64,000 nt of DNA, taken from assembly GCA_963847705.1 (NCBI GenBank), contig CAWKBC010000030.1, forward strand, positions 384,001 to 448,000, given 5' to 3'. Source of the DNA: an uncultured Pseudomonadota bacterium. GTDB lineage: Bacteria > Myxococcota_A > Polyangia > Fen-1088. Below, piece by piece: positions 6,297 through 23,389 of the stretch. Made by a program: the position numbers and the translations under genes. Numbering within the stretch: position 1 is the first letter of the stretch; every line of letters begins with the position of its first letter. Under the pieces are notes generated by a model. That model was not told where the DNA came from and searched no databases. It saw only the letters and a program-made list of their open reading frames with translations.

Positions 6297-7305
6297 CTAC
6301 CAGAGATCGAGATCGCGAAACCCCGTGCCGAGCCCGCCGGTCGTGCCGGGCGGGGGGATGGTCGGCGGTGCCGGCGGGGCCATGGCGCCGGGGCCCGCGC
6401 TGCCGCCAGTGCCCGCGCTGCCGCCAGTGCCCGCGCTGCCGCCGGTGCCCGGCGTGCTGCCGCTGGTGCCGCCCGTCGCCGAGGTGGTGCCGCTCTGGCG
6501 CCACACGGTGACCGGGTTGTTCCAGCCGGCGCAGGCCTTGAAGCCATCGGCCGAGTACGGGTTGTCGGCCTTTGTGCAATTGCTGGCGGCGCTGCAGAGG
6601 GCGTACTGGCTGCCGAACGCGTTGACGTAGGGCGGGCTCGTCTGCGCCGAGCCGAGGCGTCCCGTCGGCGGGTTGGTCTTCACCTGCGGCCCCGCGCAGT
6701 AGTACATCGGGTAGGTGCCCTGGGCGGCGCCGTGGGCGCCGGTCGTGAAGATGTTGCCGAAGAACGTCGCCTCCTCGTTCGGGTAGGAGGGATCGAGACC
6801 CCAGCCGACGGCGGTGTTCGGAGACACCAGCCAGAGCGGGATGTGGACGCCGGAGGTGTTGACGTGGGCCAGCATGCAGGCCGAGACATTCTCCTGGCAG
6901 GTCGCGTCACAAGAGCCGTTCTCCCACTGCGGGGCCATCCCGAGGAGGCCGGTGAACGTGTAGCTGGTCCCGGTCGCATCCGTCTTCACGATCGACGCGC
7001 CCTCCGGAAGCGCGCAGCGGACGAGATAGGCGATTCTGAGTGCGACCGGCGGCGGTCGTCATCAGGCCGTTGACGGTGCTGAGGCCGTTGACGGTGCTGA
7101 GGCCGTTGACGGTGCTGAGGCCGTTGACGGTGCTGAGGCCGTTGACGGTGCTGAGGCCGTTCGTCGACGCCAGGTCGGCGGTGACCGTGGTCGTCCCCAC
7201 ATCGTCCTCACCCGGCTCGCCGCACCCCACCAGGGGGATGACCAGGGCGGCCCCGAAATAAAGCGGGAGCCACTTCCATTCTGAACACCGCGTCTCAGCT
7301 CGCAT
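6297..7305 (-). CDS. Lipoprotein with STVNGL repeats and a Cys-containing domain; +1 frameshift at 7034-7035 (probably a sequencing error)
   Basis: Lipobox LVGC, (STVNGL)x5, then MTTAAGRTQ continues as IAYLVRCALPEGASIVKTDATG if one base is removed from CAGAATCG; joins ORFs 6907-7305 and 6297-6989. Confidence 0.75.
7063..7161. repeat. 18-bp tandem repeat, about 5.5 copies (encodes STVNGL)
   Basis: GAGGCCGTTGACGGTGCT repeated with DNA-level identity and no spacers. Confidence 0.95.
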
Positions 7306-7668: not shown

Positions 7669-10023
7669 ATGCTTGCACGTAACGCCTCTCCCTTCGCCTT
7701 GGTCACTGTCCTCGGATCCGCATTGTTCGTGGTTGGCTGCGCCCAGCCCGCCACCAGTCCCGGCGGCGGGACCGGTGGTAGCGGCAATGGGACCGGCGGC
7801 AGCGGCAATGGGACCGGTGGCAGCGGCAATGGGACCGGTGGCAATGGCAACGGTACTGGCGGAAGCGGCACGGGCACGGGCGGCAACAGCACGGGGACCG
7901 GCGGTACCAACACGGGGACCGGCGGCCGGGTCACGGGGACCGGCGGGAACAGCACCGGCACTGGCGGGACTGGGACTGGCGGGACCGGGACTGGGACCGG
8001 CGGGACCGGCACCGGCACCGGCGGGACCGGCACGGGCACGGGCGGAACCGGCACGGGCACGGGGGGCACGGGCGCCGGCACCGGCGGTGGCGGCGGATCC
8101 CGCCCCTCGGGTTGCCCTGCGGATCCCAACACCATCTCTGATTTCGAAGAGGGAACAACCGGCGTCGTCATCCCGCAGGGGGGGCGCACCGGCTGGTGGT
8201 ACGTGTTCTCGGACGCCACCAACAACGGCGGGATGTCCCCGGCGGCGAGCTCGACCGGACCGATCACCTCCACGATGCTCCCGTCGAGCGATCCCAACTC
8301 CGGCACCTGCGACAAGTGGGACATGGAGGTCAAGACGACCGCCGCCCACACCACGTGGGGCGCCGGGTTCGGCACGTCGCTCGACCAGATCATTCCGCCA
8401 CCGACCAGCACGACGGCCAAGACGAAGAACCCCTACGACGTGAGCGCGTACAGCGGGATCAGCTTCAACATCAAGTCGGCCTCGGGCACGGCGCCGCCCG
8501 TCTGGTTCGAGCTGGCGACGCTCAACAACCAGCCGGTGCCGGACGGAAGCATCAAGACCTCCGACGGGACCTCGGGCGGGACGGCCTCGGCCCCCAGCAG
8601 CAACGGCACCGACGAGTACAACACCCGCGGCCAGTTGATCAAAAACATCGGGACCAGCTGGACGAAGGTCTACGTTCCGTTCGGGACGCTCGGGCCCCGC
8701 TATCTTCCCGCTTCCACCGCCTCGGTCTGCTCGAACAGCGCCGTCAAGTGCGAGGCGCCTCCGTTCAAGGCGACCGACGTCCTGGGCCTGCAGTTCGCGG
8801 GCTACACCCAGTTCGCGACGGCCGCCGGAACCTTCGACCTGGTCGTCGACGACGTCGCCTTCTACACGGGCAGCAACGGCCTGGCGGCGTTCACGCCCGG
8901 CATGCTCGCCAAGGACGGCGCAGATCTGGGGTCGTGCAAGAAGCCGACGGGCGCCACCATGGACCAGCTCACCAACATGTACGCCAACTGGAAGTCGACC
9001 TTCGTCACCCCCTGCGGAGGCAACTGTGTCATGCGCCCGGAGAATGCGAACGACGTCGTCTCCGAGGGGATCGGTTACGGCATGTTGATCGCCGTCAACA
9101 TGAACGACAAGACGCTGTTTGATGCCCTGTGGTCCTACGAGCAGGGGCACAAGGCAGCGGGCAACCTGATGACCTGGTGCCTCGGCAGCGCGAAGTCGGG
9201 TGGCATGGGCTCGGCCTGCAGCCAGTCGGGCGGCTCCGCGACCGACGCCGACGAGGATATGGCCTTCGCTCTGCTCGTGGCCGACAAGCAGTGGGGCGGG
9301 ACCTACAAGTCGACGGCCACGTCGGTCATCAGCGACATCTGGTCGCACGACATCGACACCTCGTCGATGTTGCCGACTGGTGGCAGCAACTACGGCAACA
9401 CCAGCAGCAAACCGACCGATCCATCGTACTTCGCCCCCTCCTACTACCGCATCTTCGCGACCGTCGACTCGTCGCACGCCTGGGGTACGGTGGCGACCAA
9501 CGTCTACACCGCGATCAACAAAGTGGCGACGAGCTCGGGTCTGGTCCCGGCCTGGTGCAGCAACAACTGCTCGGCGGTTGGCAGCAACGGTGGCAGCGAC
9601 GACGGCATCTACCAGTACGACTCGCACCGGGTGCCGTGGCGGCTCGGCCTGGACGCTTGCTGGAACGGTACGACCACCGGAAGCACGTTCCTGACGAACA
9701 ATGCCAAGTTCTTCCAGAACATCGCTTCTCCCGCGAGCGGTGGCGGCGGTGTCGGACGTATTCAGGACATCTACACGCTCTCCGGCGCCGTCAACGGCGA
9801 CGCCGCACCGAACTCCATGTCGATCATCGGGACCGCGGGCTTCGGCGCGATGGCGGTGGGCAACGCCTTCGCCAGCACGGCGTACCAGTTCGTCCTGGAT
9901 GCGTCGTACTCGCCCGCCTCGACCATCCCCGACACGAACGGCAGAGTGTCGTACTCCTATTTCAACGCGACCGTCGGCCTGCTGACCGCGCTCACCATGA
10001 GCGGCAACTTCAACCACCCGTAA
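7669..10023 (+). CDS. GH8 glycoside hydrolase lipoprotein with Gly/Thr linker and a CBM11-like beta-sandwich
   Basis: TAAGGAG SD; lipobox VVGC; long GTGG linker; YDVSAYSGISF...VDDVAFY carbohydrate-binding-like domain; GH8 motifs VSEGIGYGML, ATDADEDMAFALL, DPSYFAP, YDSHRVPWR. Confidence 0.88.
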   Translation: MLARNASPFALVTVLGSALFVVGCAQPATSPGGGTGGSGNGTGGSGNGTGGSGNGTGGNGNGTGGSGTGTGGNSTGTGGTNTGTGGRVTGTGGNSTGTGGTGTGGTGTGTGGTGTGTGGTGTGTGGTGTGTGGTGAGTGGGGGSRPSGCPADPNTISDFEEGTTGVVIPQGGRTGWWYVFSDATNNGGMSPAASSTGPITSTMLPSSDPNSGTCDKWDMEVKTTAAHTTWGAGFGTSLDQIIPPPTSTTAKTKNPYDVSAYSGISFNIKSASGTAPPVWFELATLNNQPVPDGSIKTSDGTSGGTASAPSSNGTDEYNTRGQLIKNIGTSWTKVYVPFGTLGPRYLPASTASVCSNSAVKCEAPPFKATDVLGLQFAGYTQFATAAGTFDLVVDDVAFYTGSNGLAAFTPGMLAKDGADLGSCKKPTGATMDQLTNMYANWKSTFVTPCGGNCVMRPENANDVVSEGIGYGMLIAVNMNDKTLFDALWSYEQGHKAAGNLMTWCLGSAKSGGMGSACSQSGGSATDADEDMAFALLVADKQWGGTYKSTATSVISDIWSHDIDTSSMLPTGGSNYGNTSSKPTDPSYFAPSYYRIFATVDSSHAWGTVATNVYTAINKVATSSGLVPAWCSNNCSAVGSNGGSDDGIYQYDSHRVPWRLGLDACWNGTTTGSTFLTNNAKFFQNIASPASGGGGVGRIQDIYTLSGAVNGDAAPNSMSIIGTAGFGAMAVGNAFASTAYQFVLDASYSPASTIPDTNGRVSYSYFNATVGLLTALTMSGNFNHP

Positions 10024-10799: not shown

Positions 10800-12205
10800 T
10801 ACGGCATGCCGGGGATCGGCATCGTCAGCTTGAAGACGCCCTTGCTCGGGGCGGAGCCGCCGAGAGTCCCTTGTGCGGTGATGTAGAGGGTCTTGTGGTC
10901 GCTGCCGCCGAAGGCGGAGTTCGTGAGCTGCCCGCCGCCGGGGATCCCCGTGATGGTGGTGAGGTGGGTGCCGGCCGCGGTGGGGCTCGGGTGGGCGCTG
11001 CCGAAGCTGACCACGTCGATGTCATGCTGGTTCACGCGGACGATGTAGAGATCCCCCGCGCAGTCGATGGACATCCCGTCGGTGGCGTTGTTGTTCAGGT
11101 TGGCGCCGTCGATGGCCGTGGCGGTGGTGACGATCGTGCCGTCCGCGTTGACGGCGTAGGCGTTCACGCCTCCACCGTATCCGACGTAGAGCGTCTTCTC
11201 GTCGAGCGACAGCGTGATGCCGTTCGGACCGCTGAGCGTGCTGATGAGCTCCGTGGCGGTCGAGGCGTTCGGCGGGACCATGTAGACGCCCGTGTTGGGT
11301 TGGGTCGGGCTCGACGTCTGGAAGGAGGGGTCGGTGAAGTAGATCGTCCCGTCGCTGCGGATGGTCAGATCGTTGGGCGAGTTGAATCGCTTGCCGTTGA
11401 ACGAGTCGATGACCGTCGTCTTCACCCCGCCGGGCACGGTGAATCGGACGATGCCGCCCACACCGTGGTTGGCCGTGACGAGGTTTCCGTTCGGGTCGAC
11501 GGCGTTGCCGTTCGATCCGGAGTCCCCGCCGCTGCCCGGCGGATAGAACTGGGTGACGGCGTCGCTCGAATCGATCTTGAGGAGGCGTGACGGCGGCGGG
11601 TTGGGAGAGCCGAGCATCTCCGAGAAGTAGAGCGCGTTGCCGATCCAGACGGGACCCTCGACGTTGGTGAAGCCGTTGCCCTGACTGCCGTCGAAGCTGT
11701 CCATGGGGGGCGCTCCGGCAATCCGGGTCGCCGTGCTGCCGGCGGGGATCGCGCTCGCGGCCGGGCTGGTCATGCCGGACGGGCAGGCGTACGGCGTGAA
11801 ACCTGAGCCGCTGCCGGCCGCGCCGCCGCTGCCGCCGGCCTGCCCCCCGCTGCCGGTCGCGCCACCGGTGGCCGACCCGCCGGTGCCGCTGCCGCCGGAG
11901 CCGGTGACGCCGCCGGTGCCGCTGCCGCCCGAGCCGGTGACGCCGCCCGTGCTGGTGCTGCCGCCGGTGCCGGAGTTGGAGCCGCCCGTGCCGGTCGAGC
12001 CGCCGGTCCCGGTGTTGGAACCGCCGGTGCCAGGGTGGGAGCCGCCGCTTCCGGTGTTCCCGCCGCTGCTGCCGCCAGTGCCGGTCGCGCCCTGGCCCCC
12101 GGTGCCGCCGCCACTGCCGCCGGCGCAGGCCAGAAAGGCGACTGAGCAGGCGAGTGGAATGAAGGAAGAGCGCAGACGAATCTTACGAGTGGGGGCGATA
12201 AACAT
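10796..12205 (-). CDS. SMP-30/gluconolactonase family lipoprotein with Gly/Ser/Thr linker
   Basis: Lipobox FLAC; EGPVW, SNG, RFNSPNDLTIRSDGTIYFTDP, PNGITLSLDEKTLYV, DGM, TNSAFGG propeller motifs. Confidence 0.88.
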   Translation of the reverse strand: MFIAPTRKIRLRSSFIPLACSVAFLACAGGSGGGTGGQGATGTGGSSGGNTGSGGSHPGTGGSNTGTGGSTGTGGSNSGTGGSTSTGGVTGSGGSGTGGVTGSGGSGTGGSATGGATGSGGQAGGSGGAAGSGSGFTPYACPSGMTSPAASAIPAGSTATRIAGAPPMDSFDGSQGNGFTNVEGPVWIGNALYFSEMLGSPNPPPSRLLKIDSSDAVTQFYPPGSGGDSGSNGNAVDPNGNLVTANHGVGGIVRFTVPGGVKTTVIDSFNGKRFNSPNDLTIRSDGTIYFTDPSFQTSSPTQPNTGVYMVPPNASTATELISTLSGPNGITLSLDEKTLYVGYGGGVNAYAVNADGTIVTTATAIDGANLNNNATDGMSIDCAGDLYIVRVNQHDIDVVSFGSAHPSPTAAGTHLTTITGIPGGGQLTNSAFGGSDHKTLYITAQGTLGGSAPSKGVFKLTMPIPGMPY

Positions 12206-12304: not shown

Positions 12305-12379
12305 GGTGCCGTGGCCAAGTGGTAAGGCAAGGGTCTGCAAAACCCTCATTCCCCGGTTCAAATCCGGGCGGCACCTCCA
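12305..12379 (+). tRNA. tRNA-Cys(GCA)
   Basis: GGTGCCG acceptor, AGGGT-CT-GCA-AA-ACCCT anticodon arm, GGTTCAAATCC T-arm, CGGCACC-T-CCA end. Confidence 0.96.
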
Positions 12380-12447
12380 AGACTTTCTGACTTCACCCTC
12401 TGGCGCCCAGAGGTCTCGAGCTGATCGCGTCGCTCTGCTCGCGCGAG

Positions 12448-12483
12448 CCCATCGCGGGGGCGCGGGACCCTCCCAGGGTCCCG
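12448..12483 (-). repeat. Palindromic intergenic repeat, family A copy 1
   Basis: CGGGACCCT-CCC-AGGGTCCCG perfect 9-bp stem; reverse complement continues CGCCCCCGCGATGG as in copy 2. Confidence 0.75.
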
Positions 12484-12484
12484 A

Positions 12485-13654
12485 CTAGAACGACAATTTT
12501 CCCAGGACGCGGGGGCCGGCGGCGCCGGTGACGGCCGGGATGTTGCCGGCGGCGCCGAACAGCGTCTGGTTGGCGAGGACGGCGAAGGCGATCGCCTCCT
12601 TCGCCTCGGGGTCGACGCCCAGGGCGGCCAGGCTCTGCACGGGGATCGGCGCCAGCAACTCGACCAGGTGGCGCATGAGGGTCGGGTTGAGCGCGCCGCC
12701 GCCCGAGACGTAGACCTCGTCGGGCATGGCGGGGAGCGCCTCGCGATAGCTGCGGGCGATCGCCTCGGCGGAAAAGCGGGTCAGCGTCGCCAGCAGATCG
12801 TCCTTGCAGTCGCCGAAGCGGGTGAGGAGCGGGTAGACGAACTCCCTGCCGAAGTCCTCGCGCCCGGTGCTCTTGGGCGGCGGCTGCGACAGGAAGGGAT
12901 GGCGGTGCAGCTCGGTCAAGAGCGCGTCGTCGATCTTTCCGCGGGCCGCGCGGATGCCGTCGCGGTCGAACGCCTCGACGCCGTCGGAGGCGGCGCGGGC
13001 CACGGTGTCGAGCGGCATGTTGCCGGGGGCGTTGTCGAAGGCGACCAGATCGGCGAGGCGCTCGCTCACCAGCGTGACGTTGGCGATGCCGCCGATGTTC
13101 TGCATGGCGCGCCGGCGGCCGGGCGCGCGGAACAGGAGGTGGTCGGCCAGCGGCACCAGCGGCGCCCCTTCGCCGCCAGCCGCGACGTCGCGGACCCGGA
13201 AGTCGCTCACCACCGGGCAGCCGGTCCGCTCGGCGATGACCGCCGCCTCGCCGATCTGCAGCGTGGCGCCGACGCGTCCGGCGGAGCGGGGGTGGTGCAC
13301 GGCGGTCTGGCCGTGCGAGCCGATGAGGTCGACGTCGCCGAGCGGCACGCCGGCCGCCGCCGCCACGGCGATGGCCGCCTCGGCGAAGGACTCACCGAGC
13401 AACACGTCGAGGTCGCACAGCTCGGAGGCGTTGGCCTCCGCCAGGCGGAAGATCCTTTCGCGCAGCGGGCGGGCGAACGGGGTGCTGACGAAGCCGCGCA
13501 CCGTGCAGCGGGTGGTGTCGTCGACCCCCTCGATGGCGCAGAGCGCGGCGTCGGTCCCGTCGGCGCTGGTCCCCGACAGCAGGCCGATCACCAGCCGCTC
13601 GGGGCGGGCGCGGGCAGCCTGAAGGCGCGCCAGCGGCGCGCGCGCGACGTTCAT
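12485..13654 (-). CDS. anmK: Anhydro-N-acetylmuramic acid kinase
   Basis: IGLLSGTSADGTD, IGSHGQT, DFRVRDVAAGGEGAPLVP, NIGGIAN, PKSTGREDFG, KEAIAFA. Confidence 0.95.
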   Translation of the reverse strand: MNVARAPLARLQAARARPERLVIGLLSGTSADGTDAALCAIEGVDDTTRCTVRGFVSTPFARPLRERIFRLAEANASELCDLDVLLGESFAEAAIAVAAAAGVPLGDVDLIGSHGQTAVHHPRSAGRVGATLQIGEAAVIAERTGCPVVSDFRVRDVAAGGEGAPLVPLADHLLFRAPGRRRAMQNIGGIANVTLVSERLADLVAFDNAPGNMPLDTVARAASDGVEAFDRDGIRAARGKIDDALLTELHRHPFLSQPPPKSTGREDFGREFVYPLLTRFGDCKDDLLATLTRFSAEAIARSYREALPAMPDEVYVSGGGALNPTLMRHLVELLAPIPVQSLAALGVDPEAKEAIAFAVLANQTLFGAAGNIPAVTGAAGPRVLGKLSF

Positions 13655-13656
13655 GT

Positions 13657-13756
13657 GCGGGAACCCTGGGAGGGTTCCCGCCCCTCCCGCGATGGACGAC
13701 AAACCACTCCGCGAAGGAGGACCTTCGCAGGGACCCCAGGCTGGGCAAAGCCCAGC
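13657..13756 (+). repeat. Palindromic intergenic repeat, family A copy 2 (three hairpins)
   Basis: GCGGGAACCCT-GGG-AGGGTTCCCGC, then GCGAAGG-AGGA-CCTTCGC and GCTGGGC-AAA-GCCCAGC. Confidence 0.75.
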
Positions 13757-13772
13757 TTCGTCCGCGCGGCTG

Positions 13773-14717
13773 TCATACCACCTCGGTCGGCGCGCGGACC
13801 GGCAGATCGCCGACGATCGCCCGCAGCGAACCCTTGTGCGTCACCAGCAGCTCACGCGCGCGCGGCGCCGAGACCCCGGCGTGGTGCATGACGAGCGCGA
13901 CCTTGGCCCGACCTCCGGCCTTCTCGATCAGCTTGCGCGCCGTGGCCTCGTCCAGCCCCGAGAGGGAGCGAACGATCCGGATGGCGCGCGCCCAGAGCTT
14001 GGCGTTGGTGGGCCGGACGTCGACCATCAGCCCGGCGTAGGTCTTCCCCAGCAGCACGAACGCCGTGGTGGAGATGGCGTTCAGCGCCACCTTGGTGGCG
14101 GTCCCCGCCTTGAGCCGCGTCGAGCCGGCGATCACCTCGGGGCCGGTGTCGAGCGCCACGACCACGTCGGCCGGCATGTCGCCGCCGCTCGCCGCGCAGG
14201 TCACGAAGATGGTGGCCGCCCGGCGGAAGCGGGCGTACTCGAGGGCGGCGCGTACGAACGGCGTCACGCCCGAGGCCGCCACGCCGCACACCACATCGGC
14301 CGGTCCCACCGCCACGCGCCGCATCCGCTGCTCGGCGTCGCGGGTGTTGTCCTCGGCGCCTTCGACGGAGCGGGTGAGCGCGGAGGGGCCGCCGGCGATG
14401 ATGGCGACTAGGCGCGAGGGCGGGACGCCGAAGGTGGGGACGCACTCGACCGCGTCGAGCGTGCCGAGGCGTCCGGAGGTCCCGGCGCCGACGTAGACCA
14501 GCCGCCCCCCGGCCCCCAGCTTGTCCGCCGCCAGCCGTGCCGCCCGCCCGATCGCGTCGGCCTGCGTTCGCGCGGAAGCGATCGCCTTGGCCTCCTCGGA
14601 CAGCATCAGGGCGGCGATCGCCTCGGGCGCCAGCGTGTCCAGCCGGGTGGCGCGGGGATGCACGGCCTCCGTGGCAAGCCGCGCGAAGTCCGACGCCGTT
14701 CGGCGAGGTCCGGGCAC
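13773..14717 (-). CDS. murQ: N-acetylmuramic acid 6-phosphate etherase
   Basis: TEAVHP, GGRLVYVGAGTSGRLGTLDAVECVPTFG, VEGAED, TGPEVIAGSTRLKAGTATK, LMVDVRPTNAKL. Confidence 0.95.
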   Translation of the reverse strand: MPGPRRTASDFARLATEAVHPRATRLDTLAPEAIAALMLSEEAKAIASARTQADAIGRAARLAADKLGAGGRLVYVGAGTSGRLGTLDAVECVPTFGVPPSRLVAIIAGGPSALTRSVEGAEDNTRDAEQRMRRVAVGPADVVCGVAASGVTPFVRAALEYARFRRAATIFVTCAASGGDMPADVVVALDTGPEVIAGSTRLKAGTATKVALNAISTTAFVLLGKTYAGLMVDVRPTNAKLWARAIRIVRSLSGLDEATARKLIEKAGGRAKVALVMHHAGVSAPRARELLVTHKGSLRAIVGDLPVRAPTEVV

Positions 14718-14749
14718 GGTGTCTATCTTACCGCGTGGACGGCGCCGGG

Positions 14750-15583
14750 CTAAGCCCGGTGCTGTCCTTCGCGGGAGGAGGCGAGGCCCAGTACGGCGCG
14801 CATGTCGTGGAGCCCCGGCTCGCGGCCGGCGACCCAGAGCGCGGCACGCACGGCGCCGACCGCGAAGGTGTCGCGCGTGGAGGCGCGGTGGGTGATCTCC
14901 AGCCGGTCGCCGTTGCCCAGGAAGAAGACGGTGTGGTCGCCGACCACGTCGCCGCCCCGAATCGTCTGCACGCCGATCTCGCTCGCCGCCCGCGGACCGA
15001 TGTCGCCGTGGCGGGCATAGCGGCCGGCGCTGGCCAGCTTGCGCCCGGTGGCATTGGCCAGCGTCTCGGCCAGGGTCAGCGCCGTCCCCGAGGGCGCGTC
15101 CTGCTTGGCCCGATGGTGCGCCTCGACGATCTCCAGATCGTAGCCGGGGCCGAGCGCGCGGGCCGCGTCGGCGATCAGCTTGAGCATGACGTTGATGCCG
15201 ACGGAGTAGTTGGAGGCGAAGACGATCGGGATCTTCAGCGCGGCGAAGTCGATGGCCGCGCGGGCATGGGTGCCGACCCCCGTCGTGCCGATCACCAGGG
15301 CCGTGCCGGCGGCGGTCGCGGCCACGGCGACCGCCTCGGTGGCGCTGGCGTTGGTGAAGTCGATCCAGACGTCGGCAACGCCCCGGGCCGGCAGCGCCGA
15401 GTCGATGAGGACGCCCGTCGCTTCGATCCCGGCGCGCAGACCGGCGTCCGCTCCGATCGCAGCCGCGCCGGCCCGCTCGGAGGCGGCGGTCAGCACGGCC
15501 TCGCTCCCGGCGGCTTTCACGGCGCGGGTGAGCGCGCGTCCCATCCGCCCGTCGGCTCCGAGAACGGCGATCCGGACCGGCAT
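14750..15583 (-). CDS. dapB: 4-hydroxy-tetrahydrodipicolinate reductase
   Basis: GADGRMG, IDFT, IGTTG, NYSVGIN, EAHHRAKQDAPSGTA, RGGDVVGDHTV; start 2 nt after the dapA stop. Confidence 0.95.
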   Translation of the reverse strand: MPVRIAVLGADGRMGRALTRAVKAAGSEAVLTAASERAGAAAIGADAGLRAGIEATGVLIDSALPARGVADVWIDFTNASATEAVAVAATAAGTALVIGTTGVGTHARAAIDFAALKIPIVFASNYSVGINVMLKLIADAARALGPGYDLEIVEAHHRAKQDAPSGTALTLAETLANATGRKLASAGRYARHGDIGPRAASEIGVQTIRGGDVVGDHTVFFLGNGDRLEITHRASTRDTFAVGAVRAALWVAGREPGLHDMRAVLGLASSREGQHRA

Positions 15584-15585
15584 GG

Positions 15586-16467
15586 CTAAAGGACGCCGAG
15601 CTCTTGCAGCTGTGCCCGGAGCTTCTCGCGGTGCTGCGGCGCCAGCGGATAGAGCGGCGGGCGGATCTCGTCGGCGATTCGCCCCATCATCGCCATCGCG
15701 GTCTTGACCGGGATCGGGTTGGCCTCGACGAAGAGCCCCTCGCCGAGCGGCAGCAGCCGGTAGTGCAGCTCCCGCGCCTTCTTCCAGTCGCCGGCGGCGG
15801 CGGCGTCCCACATCGCGCTCATCTGCTTCGGCGCGACGTTGCTGACGACCGAGATGACCCCGCGCGCGCCCAGCGCGAACAGCGGGAAGGCGGTGGCGTC
15901 GTCGCCCGAGAGCAGCGCCACCTGGTCGTTCTTGCCGCCGAGCTGGGCCAGGATCTGCGACGCGCGCAGCGCCGAGCCGGTGGCCTCCTTGACGCCGACG
16001 ACCTGGGGGAGCTCGGCGAGCCGCACGATCGTCTCGGGGAGGAGATCGCAGGCCGTCCGGCCGGGGACGTTGTAGAGCACGCTCGGCAACGGCACCGCCT
16101 CCACCACCGCCTTGAAGTGGCGGTAGAGGTGCTCCTGTCCGGGACGGTTGTAGTAAGGGGTGACCAGCAGCAGGCCGTCGGCGCCGACCCTGCGCGCGGC
16201 CGCCGACATCTCGATCGTCTCGCGCGTCGAGTTCGAGCCCGTCCCGGCGATCACCGGAACGCGCTTCTTGGTCGCCTCGACCACGAGCTGGATCACCCGC
16301 AGGTGCTCCTCGTTGGTGAGGGTGGGCGACTCGCCCGTGGTGCCGACGGGGACCAGCCCGTCGACGCCGCTGGCGATCTGCTCGTCGACCAGGCGGCGCA
16401 GCGCCTCTTCGTCGACGGCGTCGCCCCGCAGGGGCGTCACGAGCGCGGTGATGACTCCGGTGAACAT
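15586..16467 (-). CDS. dapA: 4-hydroxy-tetrahydrodipicolinate synthase
   Basis: GTTGESPTL, TPYYN, LYNVPGRT, GVKEATG, NPIPVK. Confidence 0.96.
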   Translation of the reverse strand: MFTGVITALVTPLRGDAVDEEALRRLVDEQIASGVDGLVPVGTTGESPTLTNEEHLRVIQLVVEATKKRVPVIAGTGSNSTRETIEMSAAARRVGADGLLLVTPYYNRPGQEHLYRHFKAVVEAVPLPSVLYNVPGRTACDLLPETIVRLAELPQVVGVKEATGSALRASQILAQLGGKNDQVALLSGDDATAFPLFALGARGVISVVSNVAPKQMSAMWDAAAAGDWKKARELHYRLLPLGEGLFVEANPIPVKTAMAMMGRIADEIRPPLYPLAPQHREKLRAQLQELGVL

Positions 16468-16528
16468 AGTTCACCTTCTATAACACGCGACCTCGCGGTC
16501 GGATCGCGCGCGTGAGGCGATTCGGACG

Positions 16529-16969
16529 TCAAGCGATTCGATCGGGAAACCGGACCAGCGGGACGAAGGCGCCGCCGACCAGGCGGCCAGCCGCCGCGCG
16601 GACGCCGCACAGGTTGGCCATGGCGAAGACGGTTCGGCCGTGGGGCGCCGCCAGCGTCAGCGAGCGCGGGTCGGTCTCGATCCCGTCGGGTCCGCGCCGC
16701 ATGAGCAGCACCTGAAGGGTGGGCGTCGGCGTCTCGGGCGCCAGGCGCCACTCGATCTCGACGGTGTCGTCCTTCTCCGTCACGCGCAGCCCCGGGACCT
16801 CGATGGGGGCGAGGGAGGGATTCTGCGCCAGCTCGGAGATGCGCGTCTCGTACCGCAGTCGAATGCCGGCGTCGTCGGCCCCCTCGGCCAGCCGCCGGAA
16901 GATCCCGATGGCCTGATCGATCAGGCCCTGGCGAACGCACAGCTCGGCCATCGTCTCGGTGTCGAACAC
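16529..16969 (-). CDS. Hypothetical protein with an N-terminal TPR-like helix pair
   Basis: TETMAELCVRQGLIDQAIGIFRRL; starts 1 nt after the ribF stop, co-oriented. Confidence 0.65.
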   Translation of the reverse strand: MFDTETMAELCVRQGLIDQAIGIFRRLAEGADDAGIRLRYETRISELAQNPSLAPIEVPGLRVTEKDDTVEIEWRLAPETPTPTLQVLLMRRGPDGIETDPRSLTLAAPHGRTVFAMANLCGVRAAAGRLVGGAFVPLVRFPDRIA

Positions 16970-16970
16970 C

Positions 16971-17957
16971 TCAGGACTCTAACGCCCGCACACGGGCCAC
17001 GTCTGCAGTGATCTGCGCGATCAGCGCATCGATCGACTCGAAGCGTTGCTCGTCGCGCAGGCGGTCGAGGATCTCCAGGCGCACGCGACGCTCGTAGAGA
17101 TCGCCGTCGAAGTCGAGCAGGTGGGCCTCGACGGTCACCGGCGCCCCGCTGCCTGCACCGGTGAAGGTCGGATTTCGGCCGATGCTGAGCGCCGTCTGAT
17201 GCACGGCGCCAGCCTCCGGGCCGTCGAGGAGCCTGGTCCGCGCCGCGTAAATCCCCAGCTTCGGCACCAGCTCCCCTTCGGGGACGACGTTGGCGGTCGG
17301 GAAGCCCAGCGCCCGGCCGCGCGCGGCGCCACGCACGACACGCCCCTCGAGCTCCACCGGACGGGAGAGCAGCGCGGCGGCCCCCCGGACCTCCCCCTCC
17401 GCGCACAGCTCGCGCACCCGCGTCGACGAACAGGGGATCCCGTCGATGGTGACGGGCGGAATCACCGCCACCCCCAGGCCGAGCTCGGCGCCGAGCGCCG
17501 TCAACCGGGCGACGTTCCCGGCGCGGCCGCGCCCGAAGCTGAAATCGTAGCCGACCACCAGATCGCCGGCGGCAAGATCCTGCGCGAGCACCCGGCGAAC
17601 GAATTCGTCGGCCTCCACGGCCGCGAAGGCGGGGGTGAACGCCTCGACGATGGCGACGTCGATCCCCGCCTCCGCGAAGAGCTCCAGGCGGCGCTCGAGC
17701 GACATGATGAGCGGCGGTGCCTTGGTGGGCGCGAACAGGCGCGCGGGGTGAGGCGCGAAGGTCAGCACCGCCGAAGGTCCCCCCCGGCGCCGGGCGCGGG
17801 CCCGCGCCTCGTCCAGCAGCGCCTGGTGCCCGCGGTGCACGCCGTCGAAATTGCCGATGGCCACCGCCATCGGGGCCGTCGCCGAACGGGCCGCTCCACG
17901 GATGACCTCGGCGGCGCGTGCGACGGCGAAGGCGGCCGCGCCGGGGAGGATCTTCAC
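16971..17957 (-). CDS. ribF: Bifunctional riboflavin kinase/FAD synthetase
   Basis: IGNFDGVHRGH, TFAPHP, VGYDFSFG, SSTRVR, GRALGFPTAN, RNPTF, EAHLLDF. Confidence 0.96.
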   Translation of the reverse strand: MKILPGAAAFAVARAAEVIRGAARSATAPMAVAIGNFDGVHRGHQALLDEARARARRRGGPSAVLTFAPHPARLFAPTKAPPLIMSLERRLELFAEAGIDVAIVEAFTPAFAAVEADEFVRRVLAQDLAAGDLVVGYDFSFGRGRAGNVARLTALGAELGLGVAVIPPVTIDGIPCSSTRVRELCAEGEVRGAAALLSRPVELEGRVVRGAARGRALGFPTANVVPEGELVPKLGIYAARTRLLDGPEAGAVHQTALSIGRNPTFTGAGSGAPVTVEAHLLDFDGDLYERRVRLEILDRLRDEQRFESIDALIAQITADVARVRALES

Positions 17958-18337
17958 GGCCCCTCGCCCGGGCGCGAGGGAAGCATCGTGCTCACCAGGT
18001 CGATGAGCATCTCCAGCTCGAACGGCTTCTCCAGGATCCTCGCGTGCGTCACCCCCAGCGCGGCGCGGCGGTTGCGCGGGACGCCGGTCATCAGCGCCAC
18101 CGGTGCGTCGGGGAAGATGGCGGCCAGCTCGGCGGGCAGCCGATCGGGACCGGCCGAGCCCGCCACCATCAGATCGCTGAGCACGGCCGCCGGGCGATTC
18201 CCTTCCGCGACCCAGATCTGCGCGGCGCGCACGTCGCGGACCAGCGCGGGCGCATGGCCGGCCTCGCGCAACACCTGGGCCACGAGGCCTCCGATATGAA
18301 CGTCGTCTTCGATGATGAGGATGACTGCGCCGGACAT
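17954..18337 (-). CDS. Single-domain response regulator receiver
   Basis: ILIIEDD, VLSDL (phosphoacceptor), LMTG, EKPF; GTGA overlap with ribF. Confidence 0.8.
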   Translation of the reverse strand: MSGAVILIIEDDVHIGGLVAQVLREAGHAPALVRDVRAAQIWVAEGNRPAAVLSDLMVAGSAGPDRLPAELAAIFPDAPVALMTGVPRNRRAALGVTHARILEKPFELEMLIDLVSTMLPSRPGEGP

Positions 18338-18342
18338 TTTAA

Positions 18343-18415
18343 CGGGAACCCTCAAAGGGTTCCCGCGCCCTCCCAAGGCAAAGACGAAGACGGGCTTCGC
18401 CGAGCAGAGCTCGGC
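18343..18415 (+). repeat. Palindromic intergenic repeat, family A copy 3
   Basis: CGGGAACCCT-CAA-AGGGTTCCCG-CGCCCTCCC plus GCCGAGC-AGA-GCTCGGC hairpin. Confidence 0.7.
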
Positions 18416-18446
18416 TCCGCTCCACGCGTTTCGCCTTCGGTTGTGA

Positions 18447-20261
<1,815 letters not shown>

Positions 20262-23229: not shown

Positions 23230-23268
23230 TCCCCTCTCCCGCTTGCGGGAGAGGGTTAGGGTGAGGGC
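23230..23268 (+). repeat. REP-like palindrome, family C copy 1
   Basis: CCCTCTCCCGC-TT-GCGGGAGAGGG-TTAGGGTGAGGGC; further hairpins at 23098-23168. Confidence 0.7.
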
Positions 23269-23389
23269 AAGCCTTGCGCCGGGCGTGGCTCGTCAGCGTA
23301 GAGGGTGAGGGCAAGCCTTGCGACGGGCGTGGCTCGTCAGCGTACAGGGTGAGGGCAAGCCTTGCGACGGCCGGGCCCCGTCAGCGTAT
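23258..23389 (+). repeat. 44-bp tandem repeat, 3 copies
   Basis: AGGGTGAGGGCAAGCCTTGCG(C/A)CGGGCGTGGCTCGTCAGCGTA(G/C/T) starting at 23258, 23302 and 23346; third copy more diverged. Confidence 0.9.

Follow-up and report, generated by a model that had tools for sequence, protein, structure and literature searches.

The anmK region and its repeat copies

The window analysed here is a stretch of 64,000 nucleotides from the genome of an uncultured bacterium of the Polyangia (G000; assembly of 6.1 Mb, 69% GC and 84.7% complete). On its minus strand it carries anmK, a murQ-like gene, an operon with ribF, dapA and dapB, and a single-domain response regulator gene (Table 1), and at the ends of these genes lie copies of a palindromic repeat, which is the subject of this work. 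An original prediction, made from the letters of the window only, had described three palindromes, and all of them were found in place: the terminal hairpin lies 1 nt from the anmK stop codon (TAG, 12485-12487) in copy 1, 2 nt from the anmK ATG (13652-13654) in copy 2 and 5 nt (UUAAA) from the response regulator ATG (18335-18337) in copy 3. The GGGAGGG tracts of copies 2 and 3 are also as described, and there is indeed no cognate transposase within the window. The core pattern occurs three times in the window, versus once in total across 100 Markov-resampled windows, and two further partial copies (4 and 5) bring the number of copies to five. Part of the first hairpin is gone from copy 1, and copy 2 contains an additional internal hairpin of about 40 nt (hairpin at 13709-13730). 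An Rfam scan of the window returned tRNAs only, the repeat copies matching no Rfam family.

As to the neighbouring genes, we take the SIS-domain etherase gene to be a putative murQ. The names dapA and dapB were taken from their sequences, and the 146-aa gene between ribF and dapA (16529-16969, minus strand) has no Pfam match. In dapB, the native stop codon has gone together with the terminal hairpin of copy 4, and the gene now ends inside the repeat with about 10 new residues; at the same site the closest relative (G001) has a longer copy, and its dapB stops ahead of it.

Table 1. Position of the repeat copies, genes and predicted reading frames in the anmK region of the window
Feature	Position	Strand	Remarks
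tRNA-Cys(GCA)	12305..12379	+	neighbours copy 1
Repeat copy 1, internally shortened	12423..12484	+	GATCGCG head, G-tract, hairpin 12463-12483 toward anmK stop
anmK, anhydro-N-acetylmuramic acid kinase	12485..13654	-	ATG at 13654 today; PF03702 (E 2.5e-95) and codon-model gene call
Relay ORF (open reading frame), 41 codons	13651..13776	-	predicted; ancestral anmK start through copy 2
Repeat copy 2	13655..13768	-	CGCG head at 13768, first hairpin, GGGAGGG 13682-13688, terminal hairpin 13658-13680 (13657-13681 with an extra G-C pair)
murQ-like SIS-domain etherase gene	13773..14717	-	Pfam SIS/GKRP domains; GTG start context conserved
Native Shine-Dalgarno-like GAGG	13781..13784	-	in murQ 3' end, upstream of ancestral anmK start
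Partial repeat copy 4, terminal hairpin lost	14725..14779	+	provides final dapB codons and TAG
ribF, hypothetical gene, dapA, dapB	14750..17957	-	one operon direction; ribF by Pfam
Single-domain response regulator	17954..18337	-	PF00072
Repeat copy 3	18338..18428	-	CGCGTG head at 18428, first hairpin, GGGAGGG 18368-18374, terminal hairpin 18343-18365, A/T-rich tail
28-codon ORF	18339..18425	-	predicted; from the repeat's own GTG to TAA 1 nt before response regulator ATG; weak Shine-Dalgarno sequence upstream
Partial repeat copy 5 in pyrG leader	18516..18566	+	common to window genome and G001

A dispersed two-hairpin repeat

The core hairpin has 120 matches in the genome of the window, and a profile built from them found 199 repeat units at E<=1e-3, the reversed genome giving none. 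Each unit measures 72-84 nt and comprises three helices in two hairpins. It starts with GATCGCGTG, followed by the first hairpin, which is long and has a purine-rich loop inside it, then by the tract TCGCGGGRGGG, about 3 free bases and the GGG(A/G)ACCCT-NNN-AGGGT(T/C)CCC hairpin. The tail that comes last is A/T-rich and often has a stop codon or AT; the head reads (G)ATCGCGTG, and CGTC is found in about one fifth of 135 copies. The accompanying hairpins and the G-rich tract of the original prediction are therefore present, not as separate extras of an element of some 30 nt but as parts of this longer unit. The two arms of the terminal stem vary together: across 130 genome hits, the variable position was G-C (67), A-T (57) or mismatched (6). 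An alignment of 38 copies, taken from several genomes, had 93% of its cells paired and two-sided changes in 15 of the 26 pairs, a covariation that none of 500 shuffles equalled; slid controls gave 31-47%, and this control is lenient because the structure was drawn from the same sequences.

The units make up 145 loci, 32 of which are head-to-tail arrays of 2-4 units, every array being of a single orientation; the period was divisible by 3 in 19 of the 28 arrays with intact hairpins. The strict pattern was found in 27 of the 36 genomes of the family and in both genomes of one other family, while the remaining 212 genomes of the class sample lacked it. Among GTDB records, the 80 listed as carrying the pattern go under the titles of Polyangia, Myxococcales or unclassified (delta)proteobacterial metagenome-assembled genomes, and no match was obtained in viral contigs.

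Position of the copies relative to genes

There were 109 intergenic loci with an intact hairpin, and their hairpin ends faced a stop codon in 71 cases and a start codon in 38. The distance was 0-9 nt at 45 of the 71 stop-facing loci versus 7 of the 38 start-facing ones (p 7e-6). Convergent gaps were used more than expected (37 vs 16) and divergent gaps less (13 vs 34), and the adjacent stop was TAG or TAA at 38 of 47 loci, versus 2039 of 5015 genes (41%). [quoted passage not shown] Of 135 terminal copies, 76 have an AT dinucleotide just ahead of their CGCG head; of 126 copies in other genomes, 38 have one past the hairpin, at a single fixed distance. Because AT is fixed there, ATG also peaks at that distance, and only 3 of the 28 such ATGs in the relatives' loci look like gene starts, which again speaks against start-codon targeting.

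Twenty-six loci were inside called genes, many of them mid-gene, and left the frame unbroken. Several of the 14 that were scanned fell within Pfam domains, namely those of LipB, RecR, BirA, a GH3 glycosidase, an S9 peptidase and DUF790. The lipB insert amounts to a net 81 nt, is also present in G001 and is absent from 3 of the 4 orthologues found; that of recR, likewise of net 81 nt, is absent from all 5 orthologues. LipB- and RecR-type proteins decorated in this way are predicted from the genes. In another relative (G017, locus L019), a full copy lies in frame in the first murQ codons and adds about 26 residues.

Turnover of the copies

Comparison with about 800 kb of G001 showed that 20 of 23 sites occupied in the genome of the window are empty there and that, reciprocally, 9 of 14 G001 sites are empty in the genome of the window. 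No copy was present at the murQ-anmK junction (site of copy 2) in 17 of 17 relatives, nor in the response regulator leader (site of copy 3) in 14 of 14. The site at the anmK stop (copy 1) is empty in G001; of 16 relatives, 4 have a copy there, and these copies are of different subtypes with one orientation. Contigs of related organisms from metagenomes, compared at 85% likeness, run across all three window sites without the copy. The single RNA run examined contained contigs of relatives only, at a small share. A few pairs of empty and filled sites fit a duplication of AT or ATCG.

The anmK and response regulator junctions

In 15 of 17 relatives the anmK start overlaps the murQ stop in frame, and in 15 of 17 GAGG or GGAG is found just upstream of it. 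The window keeps this arrangement, with the native Shine-Dalgarno (SD) sequence as well as the ATG intact in an ATGA overlap with the murQ stop, and the repeat lies three codons downstream. The insertion shifts the frame, so that the old anmK start leads into an ORF of 41 codons, whose TGA overlaps the anmK ATG of today, again as ATGA. The original prediction had placed the repeat between an SD sequence and its start codon, and this did not hold for anmK: its native SD and start lie together upstream, and GGGAGGG is a conserved part of the repeat that is present whatever follows the copy. The tract thus belongs to the unit and is not an SD sequence of the host. One other locus (C27:891217) does sit between a native AGAGG and its ATG.

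ATGA and TGATG overlaps are described as a hallmark of termination-reinitiation in the available text of PMC6728339. The 41-codon ORF resembles these systems in that it starts and ends in ATGA overlaps, and differs from them in that the upstream ORF was created by insertion of a repeat. On the basis of sequence, a relay translation at anmK is therefore predicted as likely. An in-frame TTG at 13702 with GGAG upstream is a third possible route. For the response regulator the possible relay path is weaker and would comprise 28 codons from the GTG of the repeat. One G001 locus fits a relay: its insert precedes an ATGA overlap that is kept, the upstream gene reading through the insert. As a rule across start-facing loci, relay is only suggestive. 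At the murQ-anmK junction of a further relative (G010, locus L023), which has no repeat, short duplications have given rise to two successive GTGA overlaps and two 4-codon relay ORFs.

Search for a mobilising enzyme

These searches were restricted to the best-scoring loci, and the genomes are incomplete. With PF01797, no match was found in the genome of the window at E<=0.001. Three divergent Y1/HUH transposase-like genes that this profile missed were detected there by tblastn (C47:43847, C29:170185 and C2:32135); they have short tandem repeats at both ends and 15-20 relatives in one other genome (G008), and all three lie at least 2.5 kb from any repeat copy. None of 60 loci of Y1- or RAYT-like genes in relatives (30 each with PF01797 and NF047646) held a full copy of the repeat, and a lone hairpin was seen at one of them. 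The single reverse transcriptase locus had no copy. A small GIY-YIG gene is single-copy in the genome of the window, and 2 of 30 loci of its homologues hold a copy, 1 of them adjacent. DUF559 is absent from the genome of the window, with a copy at 1 of 30 loci in relatives, and 30 IS110 loci had no clear copy, giving only two weak partial hits. Around 122 metagenome copies, 47 neighbouring ORFs without a counterpart in the genome of the window were scanned, and one IS110 fragment and no other mobile gene appeared. A single metagenome contig (L560:1-386) has the 3' end of an IS110 transposase gene abutting a truncated array unit, which suggests the repeat as an insertion target; REPs are described as targets of some insertion sequences (PMC1525189, in the part available).

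Comparison with known repeats

As far as the available texts of PMC3733652 and PMC6006769 go, the repeat resembles the REPs (GTAG/CGTC type, associated with RAYT/TnpA-REP) in its high copy number, its palindromes and its preference for 3' ends and for convergent or co-directional gaps. It also shares with them ends that provide stop codons, subfamilies with compensatory stem changes and the in-frame residence of some copies inside genes. However, the unit has 72-84 nt and two hairpins, versus the single stem-loop of 20-40 nt given there for REPs, lacks a constant terminal GTAG or CGTC tag, occurs only in head-to-tail arrays (no inverted dimers of the BIME or REPIN kind in 32 multi-unit loci) and was found with no flanked RAYT among the best-scoring loci. 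The Rickettsia palindromic elements (RPEs) and ORF-fused MITEs, in the portions of PMC2229807 and PMC3733652 at hand, share with it palindromes, open frames and in-frame insertion in conserved genes (here lipB and recR), a likeness to which the domain scan adds the inserts in birA, GH3 and S9 peptidase genes. Compared by description only, the present repeat differs from RPEs in being shorter and GC-rich, without terminal inverted repeats and arranged in tandem arrays. Like the MITEs Correia, ERIC and RUP, it is non-coding, measures some 80 nt, has empty orthologous sites and carries an A/T dinucleotide near both ends; it lacks their terminal inverted repeats (head and tail are not complementary and the tail is variable), TA termini or a clear target duplication. 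The NTS/SRM repeats of the Ssn GIY-YIG nucleases, in what is available of PMC11893778, are also oriented hairpin repeats in the hundreds, with non-palindromic flanks and situated around core genes. Their sequence is different, though, and the small GIY-YIG gene of the genome studied here is single-copy and does not, as a rule, have the repeat beside it (a copy at 2 of 30 loci).

Older repeats are known in myxobacteria, such as RepMx and the repeats of Nannocystis that resemble multicopy single-stranded DNA. A literature search that covered subscription papers little and left out supplements (among them that of PMC3733652 on intragenic REPs) found no description of the family. It is real, REP/RPE-like and apparently undescribed.

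Origin and maintenance of the repeat

We believe that the repeat, of two hairpins and about 75-81 nt, is probably a non-coding passenger of an enzyme, spread to about 200 copies at lineage-specific sites, which persists where the genes stay readable, the relay at anmK included. An enzyme recognising the hairpins would mobilise it in trans, with a weak preference for short A/T-rich sites, and selection would then retain part of the insertions. At anmK, ribosomes would restart at the old ATGA overlap, translate 41 codons through the repeat while unwinding its 11-bp stem, and reinitiate at the new ATGA overlap; a similar though weaker path may operate at the response regulator.

The placement of the window copies invites other explanations. 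The inverted copies that abut both ends of anmK give it a cassette-like layout. That they make it a mobile or excisable cassette we regard as extremely improbable, because 17 relatives have anmK next to murQ and all lack the upstream copy, and G001 has neither copy; moreover, the flanking copies are of different subtypes, and chance alone would bracket about 4 single genes in this way. Two separate insertions happen to give the appearance of a cassette. The original prediction had also proposed a bridged ribosome-binding site or switch, in which the stem folds out and brings GGGAGGG to a working distance from the AUG, as in T4 genes 25 and 38. The SD-like tract, stem-loop and AUG of copies 2 and 3 do recall that geometry, GGAGG matches the canonical anti-SD of the genome (whose 16S tail was found), the relatives have no clear SD ahead of the response regulator, and at copy 3 the effective spacing is about 6-8 nt, within the 5-11 nt that the accessible part of PMC3014915 gives for T4. 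At copy 2, however, it is about 3 nt, and the tract is predicted to be paired in a longer mRNA fold. Furthermore, the geometry comes here from a mobile repeat, is missing in every relative compared for copies 2 and 3 (17/17 and 14/14) and concerns a small minority of copies: a start lies 0-9 nt away at only 7 of the 109 intact intergenic loci, and among the 126 copies of other genomes 2 were called start-adjacent and 30 stop-adjacent, with 53 unclear. With few start-adjacent copies, and neither copy 2 nor copy 3 conserved, bridging is not supported as the design of the family, the geometry being possible at copy 3; as an explanation of the repeat we find it very unlikely, and the likeness of GGGAGGG to an SD is incidental.

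Two further explanations start from the gene ends themselves. Copies might be kept for an action at mRNA 3' ends, blocking exonucleases or stalling ribosomes before the stop, as do REPs of Escherichia coli. The strong stop polarity within 0-9 nt and the excess in convergent gaps agree with this, as does the anmK stop site, filled in one orientation in 5 genomes, and REPs up to 15 nt from the stop are described as lowering translation (Liang 2015, as cited in the available text of PMC12306157). Against it, most sites are not conserved even in G001, G-T and A-C mismatches in the stems are about equal, and thus give no RNA-strand signal, and an A/T-rich tail in a genome of 69% GC could produce stop adjacency without function. 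We therefore hold it rather unlikely as the reason for which copies are kept; as a side effect it is compatible with a passenger repeat. Alternatively, the mobilising enzyme might aim at gene boundaries, that is, at stop or start codons, and duplicate an AT dinucleotide. The recurrent AT at both ends of the unit, the few site pairs that fit an AT or ATCG duplication and the same junctions used in different genomes point that way. This is nevertheless unlikely in view of the 26 loci inside genes, the near absence of gene starts among the ATGs at the fixed distance, the lack of any excess of duplications and the many junctions at which native bases are replaced.

Several observations weigh against a mobile passenger retained by readability. 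Transposition is inferred from presence and absence of copies, since the best-scoring loci of Y1/RAYT-like, reverse transcriptase, small GIY-YIG, DUF559 and IS110 genes yielded no mobilising enzyme, and old copies lost repeatedly would give a similar picture at some sites, for example at the anmK stop. The junctions are mostly imprecise, many replacing native bases, and target duplications of 2-8 nt showed no excess over shuffles. The loci cluster, with 20 neighbouring pairs less than 3.5 kb apart versus a mean of 10.9 by chance, so that random landing alone is insufficient. With regard to the relay, a translatable path exists at 8 of 12 start-facing loci (2 of the 12 added by eye) versus 9 of 24 frame-shifted controls (p ~0.10), and in G017 the path through an insert at an equivalent junction ends some 18 nt before the start. 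Finally, the array periods are not independent of subfamily, and the 5015 genes were called with a codon model of our own.

A more far-reaching version, which we consider unlikely too, is that of a mobile element transparent to translation, with a whole-codon length, frames open on both strands, a GTG in the head and stops or ATGs in the tail, moved by a class of enzyme new to such repeats. It would then land in genes, after stops and on starts, with coupling rebuilt by relay ORFs, and would be a steady source of 27-residue inserts and new couplings across a family of soil myxobacteria. In any case, the repeat is family-wide and fast-turning in an uncultured soil lineage, where it edits gene ends, operon junctions and also proteins, to which it adds 27 residues (LipB, RecR and others). 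It will mislead the annotation of start codons and SD sequences. The anmK locus offers a natural test between a relay ORF, a bridged SD and an in-frame internal start past a very stable stem.

Other features in the window

Upstream of pyrG, positions 18447-18516 (plus strand) hold a sigma-70-like promoter (TTGACT, 17 nt, AAGAAT), and the next 45 nt or so hardly vary among all 14 relatives compared; this stretch, which has no Rfam match, is a candidate regulatory leader of pyrG. A second repeat family lies at 23239-23389, where a CCCCTCTCCC/GGGAGAGGG hairpin precedes three units of 44 nt that open with AGGGTGAGGG; we presume a resemblance to BoxC of E. coli. A related motif occurs near 22 of 30 DUF559 nuclease loci in the family (by a loose pattern, without control), which makes DUF559 a candidate partner of this second repeat. 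Coding tandem repeats of 18-21 nt at 7046-7179, 7718-8108 and 11806-12109 correspond to Gly/Thr/Ser-rich linkers in secreted-looking proteins.

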